A stretch of 64,000 nucleotides of DNA from Candidatus Falkowbacteria bacterium GW2011_GWF2_43_32 (GTDB lineage: Bacteria; Patescibacteriota; Patescibacteriia; Patescibacteriales; UBA12465), in contig LCGL01000001.1 of the NCBI GenBank assembly GCA_000999715.1, forward strand, positions 323,139-387,138. The letters run 5' to 3'. The notes beneath the pieces are model-generated. The model saw only the letters and a program-made list of their open reading frames with translations. It was not told the origin of the DNA and did no database searches. Every line of letters starts with the position of its first letter. The first letter of the stretch is position 1. Below are positions 5,989 through 60,132 of the stretch, one piece after another. A program made the translations under genes and the position numbers.

Positions 5989-6238
5989 GAGGGCTAATTG
6001 CTTAGCCCTCAAAAATTTAGAACTCGTTGAACTGCTTTCAAGGCTATTTCACTCTATTCGCCCCTTCGATTAATAAGGACGGTATCTTATTTTTGACTCC
6101 GCTAAAGCTGGCGCCCTAGGTTCACAGTCTCCCGCCTATTCTGCACATTACTAATCTATCTTCAAGCCAACATACAGGAATTGGACCCGCTGGAGATATA
6201 ATCTCTTGCGCCCATTGCGCTACATTGTTTCTAAATTT
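5985..6238 (-). ncRNA. candidate non-coding RNA B (mini-unit 5), about 255 nt, unknown family
   Basis: The promoter is TTGACA-17-TAATAT. The terminator-like hairpin GAGGGCTAAGCAATTAGCCCTC (6010-5989) has only a weak U-tract. No ORF longer than 9 codons is present. The 5' end (6238-6228) pairs over 11 bp with 6023-6013, just before the terminal hairpin, which is the same architecture as RNA A. Confidence 0.45.
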
Positions 6239-6459: not shown

Positions 6460-6609
6460 TTACATAAACATCAGAGACATCAAAATAAATACCGCAGCAA
6501 TAGCCCACGCAAGCGATGATTTTTTAGATTTTTTTTTAAAACTAAAATATAAACAAAGAATACCGGTAATGAATACTAACACTTTTAAAATTAGAATAAA
6601 AATTTCCAT
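6460..6609 (-). CDS. 49-aa two-TM hydrophobic peptide (mini-unit 6)
   Basis: Codon-by-codon translation: MEIFILILKVLVFITGILCLYFSFKKKSKKSSLAWAIAAVFILMSLMFM*. It has the same TM-charged loop-TM layout as the 5246-5398 peptide. Its leader carries a degenerate version of the unit-3 palindrome. The SD is weak (AGAAA). Confidence 0.4.
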   Translation of the reverse strand: MEIFILILKVLVFITGILCLYFSFKKKSKKSSLAWAIAAVFILMSLMFM

Positions 6610-6717
6610 TATTTCTATTTTTTAATTTAACAATTCGATTAATTCTTAAATTTACTATTTATAATAAACTTAATAATTAACCCAATCGTTTTTTGTAAAA
6701 GAACTATATAACGAAAT

Positions 6718-6746
6718 ATCATATCACATTTACTATTTTTTGTCAA
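6718..6746 (-). promoter_or_regulatory. sigma70-type promoter of mini-unit 6 (extended -10)
   Basis: Minus strand: TTGACA (6746-6741), 17-nt spacer ending in TGTGA, TATGAT (6723-6718). Confidence 0.6.
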
Positions 6747-6838
6747 TTAATTTGTCTTCCCACTAGGGGGTAACAAGACCAAAACAAAAAATAACCCCAA
6801 TCCGCCAGCCGGCGGAGGAGTTATTTTCGCTAATATTA

Positions 6839-7057
6839 GGGTGCCTACTGGGAGTATCTCACTCAGCCGCCGCCGGAAACGCGGCGGCTTCGCTCGTCCT
6901 GGGTTGGCGCCGAGCCCTGCGCCAGCTCGGGTTCGTCGACGCTCGTCCGCTCATTTCGGCTTCCGCCTCAACTCGCGTCTCGCTTCCAACCTGTTCAACT
7001 TCCCGGCTAACGCCGACAGTAATAAAAGAACGCGCAAATGCGCGTTTTTTTATTACT
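6839..7057 (-). repeat. tRNA-His trailer module: hairpin, inverted T-arm copy, GC-rich spacer, 17-bp repeat of the tRNA 3' end
   Basis: gggtgcctactgggagt occurs at 6839-6855 and again at 7058-7074 inside the tRNA (17/17). The hairpin is at 7018-7057. gttcaacttccc (6993-7004) is an inverted T-arm copy. The spacer at 6856-6992 is GC-rich. Confidence 0.85.
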
Positions 7058-7058
7058 G

Positions 7059-7130
7059 GGTGCCTACTGGGAGTTGAACCCAGACTATCGGGACCACAAC
7101 CCGACGTTCTACCGCTAAACTATAGGCACC
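7059..7130 (-). tRNA. tRNA-His (anticodon GUG) with encoded G-1
   Basis: Cloverleaf read by eye: GGTGCCTA acceptor including G-1:C73, anticodon stem TCGGG/CCCGA, loop TTGTGGT, T-arm TGGGTTCAACTCCCA. Confidence 0.85.
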
Positions 7131-18983: not shown

Positions 18984-18991
18984 TCTTCCTG

Positions 18992-19065
18992 TGCGCCTAG
19001 ATGGACTTGAACCATCGACCCCCGCTTTATAAGAGCGGTGCTCTAACCACCTGAGCTATAGGCGC
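18992..19065 (-). tRNA. tRNA-Ile with anticodon UAU
   Basis: Read as GCGCCTA-TA-GCTC-AGGTGGTTA-GAGC-A-CCGCT-CTTATAA-AGCGG-GGGTC-GATGG-TTCAAGT-CCATC-TAGGCGC-A. The anticodon loop CTTATAA gives U34 A35 U36. Confidence 0.75.
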
Positions 19066-30209: not shown

Positions 30210-31628
30210 ATGAAAAGAAAAATAATTTTTGGTCTTCTATTTAGAAGAATGGCCGATAATAAATCGAATTTAAATAATAAACGGGGCTTAAATTTAGGAA
30301 TTTGTATTTTAACATTTACGGTCCTTTTTTCTTGGCCTTTAGTCGCGCTTAAAGCGGGAGGAGAAATAGAATTGATAACCCAACCAATATTGTCTAAAGT
30401 CGAAACAACGGAAACGGAGTCGGAATCGGAGGTTGAAATAATTAGTTTACAGGAACAGATAGTAATGGCCTTAGCTTCGTTTACTAAGACTTTACAAATA
30501 GGGGCGACGGGTGACGAAGTTCGGCAGTTGCAAACAATTTTAAAAATTTATCCGGAAATTTATCCGGAAGGAGTGGTGACCGGTTATTATGGTCCACTTA
30601 CCGAAATGGCTGTACGACGTTTTCAAATTAAAGAAGAAATAGAGGTTGCCGGGGTTGTCGGTCCGTTGACTAGAGATAAATTAAATGGATTAATAGCTAA
30701 GGAAACGACCGGGACAGTCGGTCCGACCGGGGCCACCGGCGAAACAGGCGCGACTGGTGCGGTTGGGACTACCGGAGCGGTTGGCGAAACTGGCGCGACC
30801 GGAGCTATCGGCGAAACCGGAACAACGGGTGCAATTGGCGAAACAGGAGCGCGAGGCAGGTCCGGTTCTTCCGGCTCAACCGGGGCCACCGGTGAAACAG
30901 GAGCGACCGGTTCCGTTGGAGCGACCGGGACAGAAGGTGCAGCCGGTGCTGTCGGCGACGCTGGGGCAGAAGGTGCGGCTGGCGTTGCTGGCGTTGCTGG
31001 CGACACTGGGGCAGAAGGTGCGGCTGGCGCTGTCGGAGCAGCTGGAGCAGAAGGTGCGATTGGTGCAACCGGTATTGAGGGCGCCGCCGGTGAAGCTGGC
31101 GTTGCTGGCCCGGCTGGGGCAATCGGCGAAACCGGGGCCACCGGCGAAACAGGCGCGACTGGAGCGACTGGAGTTATTTTGTCCGCTCAATATGTTCAGC
31201 TGGGAGCACAGCCGGCAACAGTGGGCGCCGGTCAACCATTTACTTATACTACCGAGGTCTTATCCACGCCGGGCATTACTTTTGAAACCGCGGTATTTAA
31301 TCCGCCGTTTATTACGAGCGGCACAATTTTTACTTTAGCCAATGTCGGACGGTATGAAATAAATTATCAAATGACCTACCCGACGGACGGTGGCATTGTC
31401 TTATATTTTGGCTCGACCATTCCGACAATGTTGCCGCTTCCTTATACGATGATCGGGAAAACCACAGACGGATCGGTTAGCGGTAGAATAATCATTCAAA
31501 CCACGACGCCAAATTCATTTTTAAGCGTTAATGCCGCGGCCGGAAACGCGGCGGCAATTGATATACCGGCGAATACCAGCACCACCAATCAAAGCGCGAC
31601 CACAATATCGTTTAAGCAGATTCAATAA
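30210..31628 (+). CDS. collagen-like (Gly-X-Thr/Ala triplet repeat) protein with a PG_binding_1-like domain and a C-terminal globular domain
   Basis: 472 aa. It has an N-terminal TM/signal segment, a peptidoglycan-binding-like stretch ([11 protein letters not shown]...[15 protein letters not shown]), about 150 aa of uninterrupted G-x-y triplets (nt 30711-31172), and then a roughly 150-aa non-repetitive C-terminal domain. Confidence 0.75.
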
Positions 31629-39601: not shown

Positions 39602-39700
39602 GTGGACTTGAGGGGACTTTCGCGCTCGTTCGCCGCTTGTTCGAGTTCCTTTCGATCAGTCAATAAATTATTCAGACAAAGCCTGAATAATTTATTGATG
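39602..39700 (-). repeat. tRNA-Ala(CGC) trailer module: hairpin, inverted T-arm copy, GC-rich spacer, 17-bp repeat of the tRNA 3' end
   Basis: gtggacttgaggggact occurs at 39602-39618 and at 39700-39716 in the tRNA (17/17). A 16-bp-stem hairpin is at 39661-39697. gttcgagttcc (39639-39649) is an inverted T-arm copy with 1 mismatch. The spacer is ttcgcgctcgttcgccgctt. Confidence 0.85.
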
Positions 39701-39773
39701 TGGACTTGAGGGGACTCGAACCCCTTACCTCTGCAATGCGAATGCAGCGCTCTACCAGATGAGCTACAAGCCC
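39701..39773 (-). tRNA. tRNA-Ala (anticodon CGC)
   Basis: Acceptor GGGCTTG/CAAGTCC with G3:U70, anticodon stem CTGCA/TGCAG, loop TTCGCAT. Confidence 0.85.
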
Positions 39774-41657: not shown

Positions 41658-43065
<1,408 letters not shown>

Positions 43066-50523: not shown

Positions 50524-50584
50524 GGGTTATTAGCTCTTCCCTCGCTTCCCGTTCATTAATTGACGAAGGCGGAGGCTAGAGCGC
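50524..50584 (+). repeat. pseudo 5' fragment of tRNA-Ala(GGC) with a 37-nt insertion at the D-loop position
   Basis: GGGTTATTAGCTC (50524-50536) matches the tRNA 5' end GGGCCATTAGCTC at 11/13. GGCTAGAGCGC (50574-50584) is identical to the tRNA D-arm at 50616-50626. The two pieces are separated by ttccctcgcttcccgttcattaattgacgaaggcgga. Confidence 0.7.
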
Positions 50585-50598
50585 CTCAATGTGTTTAA

Positions 50599-50672
50599 GG
50601 GCCATTAGCTCAGTTGGCTAGAGCGCTTCCATGGCATGGAAGAGGTCAAGGGTTCAAGTCCCTTATGGTCCA
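50599..50672 (+). tRNA. tRNA-Ala (anticodon GGC)
   Basis: Acceptor GGGCCAT/ATGGTCC with G3:U70, anticodon stem CTTCC/GGAAG, loop ATGGCAT, T-loop TTCAAGT. Confidence 0.85.
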
Positions 50673-50919
50673 CTAAAAAAAAGAACCCCACCTGCGTGGG
50701 GTTCTTTTTTTAAGATTGAAAGCATAAGGGACTTGAAAGCCGGAGGCGATGCGCACTTGTGCGCCGCCGAGGCCGGGTCGGGGCGCTTAGCGAGTGAGAC
50801 TTGCGAAGCAAGCGAGCGAGGCTTAGCGACCGTGACCAAGTCCCTTATGGTCCACTAATGAAAACAACCCGAACTGCTTTGGGTTGTTTTCATTAAAGAT
50901 AAAAATAAGGGACTTGAAC
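50673..50919 (+). repeat. tRNA-Ala(GGC) trailer module, doubled: hairpin, inverted T-arm, GC-rich spacer, 22-bp 3'-end repeat, second hairpin, second inverted T-arm
   Basis: caagtcccttatggtccactaa occurs at 50655-50676 and 50837-50858 (22/22). cataagggacttgaa (50723-50737) and ataagggacttgaac (50905-50919) are 15-nt exact inverted copies of the T-arm. Hairpins are at 50676-50712 and 50859-50895. The GC-rich spacer is at 50738-50836. Confidence 0.85.
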
Positions 50920-55108: not shown

Positions 55109-56167
55109 ATGCCCGTCGTTAAATCTTCTCAAATAAATATTAACGGTTCATCGCCTCGCCGAGGCACCTGGTTCAGAGTGGCGATGGCGATTTTTGTTCT
55201 TATTTTAATCGGGCTTCTTTATATTTTTAAAATCGCCGAATATCGTCCGGAAAAAGAGGGACTGGAACATCGGGCGGATTTTTTTGGCATCACTTTTTCT
55301 ACAAAATTCTGCGACGAACTCGGCTTGGGTTGGAAAGAGACTTATCGGGCGATATTGGACGAATTGCAGGTGAAATACATTAGAATTCCGGTTTATTGGG
55401 ACGAGATTGAAAGAGAAGAGGGCGTGTATGATTTTTCCGATTACGATTATCTTTTGGACACCGGAGAAAAAAATGATGTCAAATTTATTTTGAGCATCGG
55501 TCGTCGTATTCCGCGTTGGCCGGAATGTCATAGCCCGGCTTGGCTTAATCGTCAAAGCGAAACTGAAGCGCAGGCGGCGACGTTGAAGATGATTGCGACG
55601 GTTATTGAACGTTATCGCGATCGCGCCAGCATCGAATATTGGCAGATAGAGAATGAACCGTTTTTGGGAACCTTCGGCGTTTGCCCGCCCTTAGATGAGG
55701 AGTTCTTGCAACAAGAGTTCGCGTTGGCGCGCTCATTGGACGATCGTCAACTTATCATCACCGGCTCGGGAGAGTTAAGCTCGTGGAAAAAAGAGGCCGC
55801 CGTCGGTGACATTTTTGGCAGTACGTTATATCGCTCTATCCACAATAAAGTTGTCGGTCATATCCGATACCCTTTTTCCACTTGGTTTTATGAAACTAAA
55901 GCGAAAATGGCCGGGTTGACTCCGGAACGATTAATGGTTTTGGAATTGCAAGCCGAGCCTTGGGTGCCGCAAGGGAAAATGATTTATTTGTCCGACAGTG
56001 AAATCAACAGAACGATGAGTATTCAACAATTCAAGAATAACATTCAATATGCGGTTGATTTGGATTTCCGACGCGCTTATTTTTGGGGAACGGAGTGGTG
56101 GTATTGGCAAAAAAAATACGGCAATCCAGAATATTGGCGGATCGCCGCGAGCTTGTTTGCAGATTAA
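55109..56167 (+). CDS. glycoside hydrolase, clan GH-A TIM-barrel type (GH5/GH42-like), membrane anchored
   Basis: 352 aa with an N-terminal TM segment. IRIPVYWDEIEREEGVYDF and WQIENEP (the catalytic NEP acid/base motif) are present. Confidence 0.55.
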   Translation: MPVVKSSQININGSSPRRGTWFRVAMAIFVLILIGLLYIFKIAEYRPEKEGLEHRADFFGITFSTKFCDELGLGWKETYRAILDELQVKYIRIPVYWDEIEREEGVYDFSDYDYLLDTGEKNDVKFILSIGRRIPRWPECHSPAWLNRQSETEAQAATLKMIATVIERYRDRASIEYWQIENEPFLGTFGVCPPLDEEFLQQEFALARSLDDRQLIITGSGELSSWKKEAAVGDIFGSTLYRSIHNKVVGHIRYPFSTWFYETKAKMAGLTPERLMVLELQAEPWVPQGKMIYLSDSEINRTMSIQQFKNNIQYAVDLDFRRAYFWGTEWWYWQKKYGNPEYWRIAASLFAD

Positions 56168-59843: not shown

Positions 59844-59919
59844 CTCAAAATTTACTCTGGTAATAAAATTGAAGTCTCAAAGGTATTTAAGAGGCCTTAA
59901 ACCAGCCTCTTTTTTATTT

Positions 59920-60060
59920 AGAGCGGGTAAGGGGAATAGCGTGCTCGATTATTCGTCGTCGCTTCCGCTCCTCCTCATATCTCGCTCGCTACCTGTCCGA
60001 TTCCCGGCTCGACTCTTATAAAATAAAACAGCCCCTGACGAGGCCGTTTCATTTTATAAG
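59920..60060 (-). repeat. tRNA-Gly trailer module: hairpin, inverted T-arm copy, GC-rich spacer, 18-bp repeat of the tRNA 3' end
   Basis: agagcgggtaaggggaat occurs at 59920-59937 and 60059-60076 (18/18). The hairpin is at 60015-60060. gtccgattccc (59995-60005) is an exact inverted T-arm copy. The spacer at 59938-59994 contains ctcgctcgct and cgtcgtcgcttccgc. Confidence 0.85.
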
Positions 60061-60132
60061 AGCGGGTAAGGGGAATCGGACCCCTCTCATAAGGTTGGAA
60101 ACCTTAGGTAATAACCACTATACGATACCCGC
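60061..60132 (-). tRNA. tRNA-Gly (anticodon UCC)
   Basis: Acceptor GCGGGTA/TACCCGC, anticodon stem TAAGG/CCTTA, loop TTTCCAA, T-arm GGGGTCCGATTCCCC. Confidence 0.8.

Follow-up and report, generated by a model that had tools for sequence, protein, structure and literature searches.

In a 64 kb stretch of the chromosome of Candidatus Falkowbacteria (Patescibacteria/candidate phyla radiation, CPR; GC content 0.42), referred to as the window in the following, four of the 11 tRNA genes bear a small downstream element, which ends in an exact copy of the 3' segment of its tRNA gene and carries an inverted copy of the T-arm and a GC-rich core, folded where it is complete. These elements are probably RNA modules of the type known from Escherichia coli as tRNA-linked repeats (TLRs), passengers that would be co-transcribed with the tRNA and would spread by recombination within its 3' segment. 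Judged by their architecture, they would thus represent distant new members of a known, still unexplained kind: E. coli TLRs have been on record for decades, and most of them have neither a function nor a known origin. Their design would then not be an enterobacterial oddity, given that Patescibacteria, too, show the inverted T-arm piece, the placement between two terminators and a repeat with its boundary at position 58 of the tRNA. The first-pass annotation of the window, made from the sequence alone, described the elements and overlooked this E. coli precedent, where the architecture is already known.

Besides the tRNA genes, the window holds dnaA/dnaN, a 16S rRNA gene and genes for aminoacyl-tRNA synthetases. 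The elements are identical in all three to four independent assemblies of the source species, and about 8 kb of extra sequence from the source contig beyond the window contain no further tRNA.

Anatomy of the elements

tRNA genes were called with ARAGORN, and the whole window was scanned with Rfam at gathering score. The four elements share a fixed order of parts: the tRNA end is followed by a long AT-based hairpin, a linker of 8-14 nt, the inverted T-arm copy (anti-T in the following), a GC- and purine-rich core, an exact repeat of 17-19 nt of the tRNA end and, finally, the original trailer. The remaining seven tRNAs are without anything comparable.

At tRNA-His(GUG) (7058..7129, minus strand; Rfam 66.4 bits), the first-pass annotation had delimited six parts, all of which we recover within 1-2 nt. 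The gene ends at C74 and does not encode CCA. Its positions 58-74 constitute copy 1 of the direct repeat (7058-7074, minus strand; repeat search). Next comes hairpin 1 (7017..7057, minus strand), a near-perfect 20-bp palindrome identified by repeat search, terminator scan and folding, with arms at 7017-7036 and 7039-7058 that are 95% complementary. Its 5' arm is rich in A and its 3' arm in T, and it looks like a terminator on either strand. It comes with the element, and the hairpins of the homologous elements in the relatives L019 and L067 have a different sequence and a similar shape. The linker TCGGCGTTAGCC (7005..7016, minus strand; defined by alignment) contains GCGTTAGC, which is conserved in the alignment of the three tRNA-His elements. 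The anti-T GGGAAGTTGAAC (6993..7004, minus strand; repeat search) is the reverse complement of tRNA positions 53-63 plus one extra A (a match of 11 nt at 91%, equivalent to one added A), and its 3' boundary is the complement of G53. The extra nucleotide had been listed as a feature of the design; it is real in this copy, but the homologues in L067, L019 and L080 match perfectly over 11-13 nt. The core (6856..6992, minus strand) comprises 137 nt and five helices, as supported by covariation and by a score of 143 bits with our covariance model R1; it has a GC content of 0.68, compared to 0.42 for the window, and consists of purines to 63%. Copy 2 of the repeat, ACTCCCAGTAGGCACCC (6839..6855, minus strand), again corresponds to tRNA positions 58-74, is identical to copy 1 in 17/17 positions and is spaced from it by 219. 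It is followed by the original tRNA-His terminator, AAAATAAC..GGGGTTATTTTTTG with a T-run (~6778..6827, minus strand), recognized by repeat search, folding and comparison with relatives.

The same order, as previously described, recurs at the other three loci. The tRNA-Ala(CGC) element (39602..39716, minus strand; repeat search) consists of repeat copy 1 (39700-39716), hairpin (39660-39698), anti-T (39639-39650), a core remnant of just 20 nt (39619-39638) and repeat copy 2 (39602-39618), directly followed by tRNA-Pro. In the tRNA-Gly(UCC) element (59921..60076, minus strand; R1 19.3 bits, E 0.003; full-length orthologue in L079), repeat copy 1 (60060-60076), hairpin (60013-60062), anti-T (59995-60005; 11/11) and repeat copy 2 (59921-59937) enclose an internally deleted core of 57 nt (59938-59994), and the original terminator lies behind the element (59882-59920). 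The tRNA-Ala(GGC) element (50655..50919, plus strand; repeat search, orthologues in L079 and L083) comprises a complete unit at 50655-50855 with repeat copy 1 (50655-50673), hairpin (50674-50714), anti-T (50723-50737; 15/15), core (50738-50836) and repeat copy 2 (50837-50855), behind which the stump of an older copy persists (hairpin 50856-50895, anti-T 50905-50919). Two details of the earlier description fall away: the tRNA-Ala(GGC) core belongs to a second subfamily, and the octamer AGCGAGCG, proposed as a family marker, is exact in just two of the four elements and occurs three further times in coding sequence.

The exact repeats are 17, 17, 19 and 17 nt long at tRNA-His, tRNA-Ala(CGC), tRNA-Ala(GGC) and tRNA-Gly, respectively. 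They span positions 58-74, that is, from the T-loop A to the first base past the discriminator, at tRNA-His, tRNA-Ala(CGC) and tRNA-Gly; for the tRNA-Ala(GGC) subfamily, the span is 56-74. The units at tRNA-His, tRNA-Gly and tRNA-Ala(GGC) lie between hairpin 1 and the native terminator, whereas the tRNA-Ala(CGC) unit precedes tRNA-Pro instead.

For comparison with relatives, species-representative genomes and metagenomes were scanned with the tRNA-His 3' end, which gave about 50 Patescibacteria tRNA-His loci; syntenic tRNA-Gly and tRNA-Ala loci were reached via TrxB homologues. As these scans were keyed to tRNA-His and one syntenic region, the family-wide frequencies are rough. Relatives are given by their L numbers, of which L076 denotes the same metagenome-assembled genome as L019. 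Together with eight further loci, the four window loci make up a collection of 12 element instances. All 12 begin at the base after tRNA position 74/76, and in all 12 the anti-T begins 49-58 nt past the tRNA end; it almost invariably stops at the base complementary to G53. One long imperfect palindrome of ~85-95 nt thereby extends from the tRNA 3' segment through the hairpin and linker to the anti-T; in it, two paired regions (positions 53-63 with the anti-T, and the hairpin) are separated by an unpaired stretch (positions 64-74 opposite the linker). Repeat copy 2 is decayed or absent in five of the 12 instances, including those of L078, L083 and L037 and the tRNA-Gly element of L079.

Such an arrangement is far beyond chance. 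The expectation for a given 17-mer to recur within 300 nt is about 2e-8 per tRNA; among 122 tRNAs in 70 sequences, a 3'-end repeat is found only at the four window loci and two homologous tRNA-His loci; and inverted T-arm matches of at least 9 nt lie downstream of 10/130 tRNAs, compared to upstream of 1/130. We therefore consider the observation real.

Empty sites and exchange between tRNA genes

In all but three of the ~50 tRNA-His loci, a AAAATAAC..GGGGTTATTTTTG terminator directly follows the tRNA, which amounts to about 45 relatives; only the window, L019 and L067 are occupied. This terminator is the sequence that stands after repeat copy 2 in the window, and it adjoins the tRNA directly at the empty sites of L010, L039, L054, L062 and L066; L010 and L039 also match the window in the promoter and leader further downstream. 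Likewise, L076, L077 and L084 have no element at either tRNA-Gly(UCC) or tRNA-Ala(GGC), and their trailers are homologous to the window sequence behind repeat copy 2. Elements occupy tRNA-Ala(GGC) in four of seven genomes and tRNA-Gly(UCC) in three of nine, and none are found at tRNA-Arg(CCU) and tRNA-Leu(UAG). In relatives, the sites at tRNA-His, tRNA-Gly and tRNA-Ala are thus precisely empty, which identifies the elements as discrete insertions.

The three tRNA-His elements, 219-220 bp in length, are alignable from end to end, and R1 was built solely from their cores. With this model, the core is also found behind tRNA-Gly in L079 (106.8 bits) and L080 (71.8 bits), behind tRNA-Ala(GGC) in L078 (50.8 bits) and, weakly, in the tRNA-Gly element of the window (19.3 bits); away from tRNAs, it yields no match in the window, even with filters off, or in 47 related loci totalling 300 kb. 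One core family is thus found at tRNA-His, tRNA-Gly and tRNA-Ala, and the repeat and anti-T always match the local tRNA. The tRNA-Gly and tRNA-Ala(CGC) elements of the window are internally deleted forms that retain both ends. The window, L079 and L083 carry the second core subfamily (GCCGGAG...) behind tRNA-Ala(GGC), and the more distant L037 has it behind tRNA-Leu(GAG). The same tRNA-Ala(GGC) gene accordingly carries the first subfamily in L078 and the second one in the window, L079 and L083. Furthermore, the core of the tRNA-His element in the window is closest to that of tRNA-Gly in L079 (74% identity) and shares 53-65% with the other tRNA-His cores, and helix 4 is 93% identical between tRNA-Ala of L078 and tRNA-Gly of L079. 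As judged from these alignments, core similarity is independent of tRNA identity, and cores have been exchanged between loci.

Newer copies are also stacked in front of truncated older ones. In L080, a full unit is followed by the hairpin, linker, anti-T and first 9 nt of a second core, which parallels the stump at 50856-50919 in the window; arrays longer than two units are not seen among the 12 instances. Together, the cores shared across tRNAs, the two subfamilies at one gene and the tandem stumps require repeated independent arrival plus recombination among copies. The earlier reading of a family of miniature non-autonomous insertions at tRNA 3' ends is, as a description, borne out by the precise empty sites, the same core at different tRNAs, the two cores at one tRNA and the tandem copies.

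This distribution is difficult to reconcile with the notion that the elements are immobile trailer RNAs which evolved in the host, are inherited vertically, and owe their pattern to loss via recombination between the repeats and to gene conversion among dispersed copies. Parts of the data would agree with it: in a SpoU tree, the three genomes with an occupied tRNA-His fall within one subclade, where losses are plausible; L055 retains merely a hairpin-1-like terminator; the window and L079 share both the tRNA-Ala(GGC) and the tRNA-Gly element; and the mosaic core identities are compatible with gene conversion. However, it leaves unexplained how one core first arrived behind at least four tRNAs, each time with a matching repeat and anti-T. 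Moreover, an identical tRNA-Ala(GGC) gene bears two unrelated core subfamilies in different genomes, and complete copies precede truncated older ones. We consider vertical inheritance alone improbable.

The first-pass annotation had also raised the possibility of uniformly eroded relics of integrative elements. Direct repeats of tRNA 3' ends are what large integrase-bearing islands leave behind, and several second copies of the repeat are indeed decayed. Yet the tRNA-His elements of three genomes have a uniform length of 219-220 bp, the anti-T keeps a constant distance, covariation accompanies a conserved internal structure, and gene fragments are lacking inside. No full-length island was seen at an orthologous site, and no integrase-bearing element at any of ~150 Patescibacteria tRNA loci, which were inspected with short flanks and without a systematic gene search. 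Due to the uniform size and the conserved structure, random erosion of islands once present at these tRNAs is essentially excluded, and we regard it as the most improbable of all explanations considered here.

Some further observations concern the surroundings of the occupied tRNAs. The loop of the native tRNA-His terminator holds, at 6799-6818, a GC-rich palindromic insert (TCCGCCGGCTGGCGGA) relative to the relatives, and in L059 (2094-2140) another GC-rich palindrome (CCGCTAAGCGGGGGTGATGGTGCGCTTAGCGCACCACCCC) lies between tRNA-His and the native terminator, without a repeat and without an anti-T. Upstream of tRNA-Ala(GGC), an insertion of ~73 nt (50526-50598), absent from L076, L077, L078 and L084, includes a degenerate version of tRNA positions 1-13 (GGGTTATTAGCTC), a tract rich in pyrimidines (TTCCCTCGCTTCCCG) that is the complement of the GGAAGCGAG motif of the cores, and a hairpin with a copy of the D-arm (GGCTAGAGCGC). 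Two such 5' pseudo-halves are present upstream of tRNA-Ala(GGC) in L079 (7660-7805). The insertion may represent a mirror-image phenomenon at the tRNA 5' end.

A conserved fold on the tRNA-sense strand

Across seven R1-aligned cores, 91.4% of the cells in the five helices are paired, and 28 of the 41 core pairs show compensatory change. When the partner is slid by 1-3 columns as a control, pairing falls to 31-41%, and none of 500 shuffles reaches the observed values. As the alignment was fitted to R1, these figures are somewhat inflated; four of the seven sequences lie outside the R1 training set. The helices contain 16 G-U pairs and only two A-C oppositions, and the folding strand is therefore the tRNA-sense strand. 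The core is, accordingly, under selection for the secondary structure of this strand, and the folded molecule is either RNA or, less conventionally, single-stranded DNA. Conserved purine-rich motifs of the core remain unpaired (AAGCGAG, GAGCG and CAGGACGAG). In searches against known RNA families in Rfam, the window at gathering score and the tRNA-His and tRNA-Gly elements at E<=10 gave only tRNA and chance matches.

A coding function is not supported. The homologous elements share no conserved open reading frame (ORF), in agreement with the earlier remark that the DNA between the repeats lacks one; long open frames do occur because the antisense strand is A-poor, and they are not kept between homologues. 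We also dropped a tRNA-like acceptor helix between the linker and repeat copy 2, which RNAalifold proposes for tRNA-His, mostly with G-U pairs, because it does not hold at tRNA-Gly or tRNA-Ala.

A functional trailer RNA, one of the options of the first-pass annotation, is consistent with the covariation, the G-U bias on the tRNA-sense strand and the E. coli precedent, all of which support it indirectly. The main rival of the TLR-type passenger is a purely selfish DNA: the elements would be relics of non-autonomous, attP-only minicircles moved by a tyrosine integrase encoded elsewhere, with hairpin, anti-T and core as arms of the recombination site, possibly as folded single-stranded DNA, and any RNA would be incidental. 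17-bp repeats flank P4-type islands, and a repeat from the interior of the T-loop to the gene end, as found here, is the classical footprint of tRNA-targeting integrases. The precise empty sites and tandem accretion fit this scenario, as do the decayed second repeat copies in several genomes and the short derivatives, which lose the interior yet retain both ends, reminiscent of miniature inverted-repeat transposable elements (MITEs). Folded single-stranded DNA tolerates G-T pairs too, and the strand asymmetry hence does not exclude DNA. On the other hand, the window is without an integrase, no larger relative was seen at the inspected tRNA loci, and there are no copies in viral contigs. One core family at four or more tRNA identities would need several integrases, or a single one that reads the anti-T, and five helices with compensatory change over 137 nt go far beyond the known needs of arm-type sites. 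We consider such a selfish origin rather unlikely, though more plausible than the other alternatives. A viral origin was rejected, as IMG/VR scans with the 17-mer and with a core motif yielded no more than four matches, all by chance and in unrelated contigs of high GC content.

The inverted T-arm copy

The anti-T can be divided into two halves. The 5' half can pair with positions 58-63/65 of repeat copy 2 and would thereby close the core, while the 3' half is complementary to positions 53-57, which are present only in the tRNA itself. The earlier proposal that the anti-T pairs with the downstream repeat thus applies to its 5' half and fails for the 3' half. Furthermore, two variants of the T-loop from beyond the repeat, A57G of L019 and C55U of L080, are mirrored by the anti-T. 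Either this segment was copied from the local tRNA on arrival of the element, or its complementarity to the T-loop is maintained. In the minimum free energy fold of tRNA, hairpin and anti-T, the pairing between anti-T and T-arm is not used.

These features allow for a further, unlikely option, namely that the anti-T and the adjacent 58-74 copy constitute a self-carried targeting device, either a folded recombination site that mimics the T-arm or a guide for a nucleic-acid-guided recombinase. If true, a single trans-acting enzyme could insert an ORF-less cassette at 57/58 of any matching tRNA gene, retargeting would need only the change of a short segment, and the same mechanism would account for the origin of the E. 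coli TLRs, unexplained since 1978.

A separate observation concerns L019 (~640-660), where the anti-T GGGGAGTCGAAC of the tRNA-His element matches the T-arm of the upstream tRNA-Arg(UCU) over 12 nt, one more than that of tRNA-His.

A model for expression and spread

As passenger RNA modules of the TLR type, the elements could work as follows. Each unit brings four parts, namely a palindromic terminator-like hairpin, an anti-T that corresponds to the T-loop and 3' T-stem of the host tRNA, the five-helix core of ~100-140 nt and a terminal copy of tRNA positions 58-74; the tRNA remains intact, and the original trailer is displaced downstream. Read-through of hairpin 1 would extend transcripts from the tRNA promoter into the core. 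The repeated tRNA end, closed by the 5' half of the anti-T, could act as a tRNA-like 3' processing site, as proposed for RrA/B/F, and processing at repeat copy 2 would release a defined structured RNA. For their spread, we envisage conservative recombination inside 58-74, with its left edge at 57/58, between a tRNA gene and a donor copy, presumably catalysed by an enzyme that acts in trans.

Several points weigh against this model. The resemblance to the E. coli TLRs appears to be purely architectural, without similarity at the sequence or profile level (see below). Hairpin 1 resembles an efficient terminator, and read-through may consequently be rare. The short derivatives, with cores of 20 nt at tRNA-Ala(CGC) and 57 nt at tRNA-Gly, retain their ends and lose the folded core; together with the decayed or missing second repeat copies, they imply that an RNA function is dispensable, or else that the ends serve at the DNA level. 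The model offers no explanation for how an element gains the repeat and anti-T of a new tRNA, nor for the anti-T half that is complementary to positions 53-57 and cannot pair with repeat copy 2. For tRNA-His alone, the three occupants belong to one SpoU subclade, and a single ancient gain followed by precise losses would account for them no less well than three gains. Finally, the ORFs of the 64 kb window include no recombinase, with Pfam scans and gene tables returning housekeeping genes only, and the trans-acting recombinase suggested by the first-pass annotation did not turn up among them; with ~72 kb of the source genome covered, the gene may lie elsewhere in the genome.

As regards annotation, the elements account for GC-rich islands and assembly breaks beside tRNA genes in CPR genomes, and they should not be annotated as prophage att scars.

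Other features of the window

Beyond the tRNA-His trailer, a near-consensus promoter (TTGACA-17-TGnTATGAT) precedes an AT-rich leader, TATATAGTTC.TTTACAAA...GGTTAATTATTAAGTTTATTA (6600-6746, minus strand). The leader is kept downstream of tRNA-His in many Falkowbacteria (L010, L011, L052, L059), before an ORF for a small membrane protein, and possibly acts as a cis-regulatory RNA. At 6068-6156 (minus strand), an isolated stretch of 89 nt matches positions 2126-2215 of bacterial 23S rRNA, the L1-stalk region; it scores exactly at the Rfam gathering threshold and sits in an AT-rich, gene-poor stretch of ~1.3 kb between an EamA fragment and the tRNA-His trailer.

The sole other long GC-rich tract of the window (30695-31175) is coding; it specifies the collagen-like triple-helix repeats of a 472-aa protein that also has a peptidoglycan-binding domain. 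Beside tRNA-Val(GAC), a tRNA called as Ile with the anticodon UAU (18991-19065, minus strand) represents an isoacceptor uncommon in bacteria. Two assemblies differ from the window: in the 16S rRNA gene (41659-43065), JGI assembly L070 has 40 and 34 extra bases at 42280/42281 and 42663 and is otherwise 100% identical, which could be an insert polymorphism or a difference in assembly or editing; and NCBI assembly L071 is without 64 bp (55675-55738) inside a glycosyl-hydrolase-like gene, resulting in two gene calls.

Comparison with known systems

Several classes of mobile elements were considered and rejected. MITEs of DDE transposons do not fit, as the inverted segments (anti-T versus repeat copy 2) are copies of the target, the duplication comprises 17-19 nt, and all copies are found at tRNA 3' ends rather than dispersed. 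Models based on retroviral-type primer-binding sites, IS200/IS605, IS91 or hairpin telomeres were set aside on anatomy alone, because their junctions or missing duplications do not match. With folded single-strand recombination sites, such as integron attC sites and the attP of CTX-phi, the elements share the long imperfect palindrome, in which two paired regions surround an unpaired stretch, and one extrahelical base, which is confined to the tRNA-His copy of the window and not conserved. Unlike in attC sites, however, the palindrome has GTT at its 5' base and AAC at its 3' base, opposite to the RYYYAAC...GTTRRRY polarity; no integron integrase or Xer context is seen, and the crossover point of the Falkowbacteria elements is a deduced one. 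The reversed polarity, the extra base in one copy only and the lack of an integrase led us to reject attC sites and clusters of attC sites lacking integron integrases (CALIN).

Islands, satellites and cis-mobilisable elements that use tRNA genes through an integrase are more similar, in that a direct repeat of the tRNA 3' segment of the attL/attR type bounds the insert, the tRNA is restored by element DNA, and accretion at one site yields tandem copies. They differ from the Falkowbacteria units, which are 98-220 bp long and gene-free, have no integrase inside or next to them and no larger relatives among the loci seen, serve several tRNA identities with one core family and show strong RNA-type covariation.

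The closest parallel is offered by the E. coli TLRs, which include the rtT/RttR units of the tyrT operon and the rrA/rrB/rrF small RNAs behind 5S rRNA (Egan and Landy 1978; Rudd 1999; PMC8144298). [quoted passage not shown] The rrA, rrB and rrF RNAs lie between the terminators T1 and T2 and arise by read-through of T1, presumably with a cut at the repeat; the remaining TLRs have no known function (PMC8144298).

We examined the tyrT and rrnB loci of strain K-12 directly. The tyrT repeat AATCCTTCCCCCACCACCA corresponds to tRNA positions 58-76, and in every tyrT unit a GAGCGA-rich core with GC hairpins is preceded by GGGGAAGGAT, which is the reverse complement of positions 59-68. In rrnB, the 5S rRNA is succeeded by T1, a long AT-based hairpin, and then by GGATTTGAAC, a GC core, an 18-nt repeat and T2. 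As a side observation, the GGATTTGAAC of the rrB unit (L082, 345-366) is the complement of a tRNA-type T-loop (GTTCAAATCC) and not of 5S rRNA, a hint that rRNA-linked TLRs derive from tRNA-linked ones.

At the level of sequence, no relationship can be demonstrated. The Rfam model RtT (RF00391) gives no match at E<=10 on the tRNA-His and tRNA-Gly elements, while the E. coli units score 133-137 bits, and none on E. coli rrB either; R1 reaches only 5.2 bits on tyrT; nhmmer finds no match between the Falkowbacteria elements and the E. coli TLRs; and Smith-Waterman alignments with shuffles exceed z>4 in just one of 22 pairs. In consequence, the resemblance is confined to the architecture. There, CCA is missing from the repeat of the Falkowbacteria elements, since it is not encoded in most of these tRNA genes; their anti-T corresponds to positions 53-63, compared to 59-68 in E. 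coli, and the host phylum is very distant. The likenesses are nevertheless extensive: each unit directly follows a tRNA or rRNA gene and shares its transcription unit; the final 17-19 nt of this gene recur at the 3' end of the unit, with a left boundary at position 58 in tyrT too; they occur singly or in tandem, here with two at most and the second one truncated; rrB lies between two terminators, of which the first is a long AT-based hairpin; and an inverted piece of the T-arm stands ahead of a GC- and purine-rich core with GC hairpins.

To our knowledge, accounts of the E. coli TLRs include neither insertion polymorphism nor an exchange between tRNA genes; both are documented here for the Falkowbacteria elements. 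With empty sites, exchange between tRNAs and strong covariation, these elements supply comparisons that E. coli lacks, and they make the nature of TLRs testable: are they processed passenger RNAs, and which recombination system inserts them?

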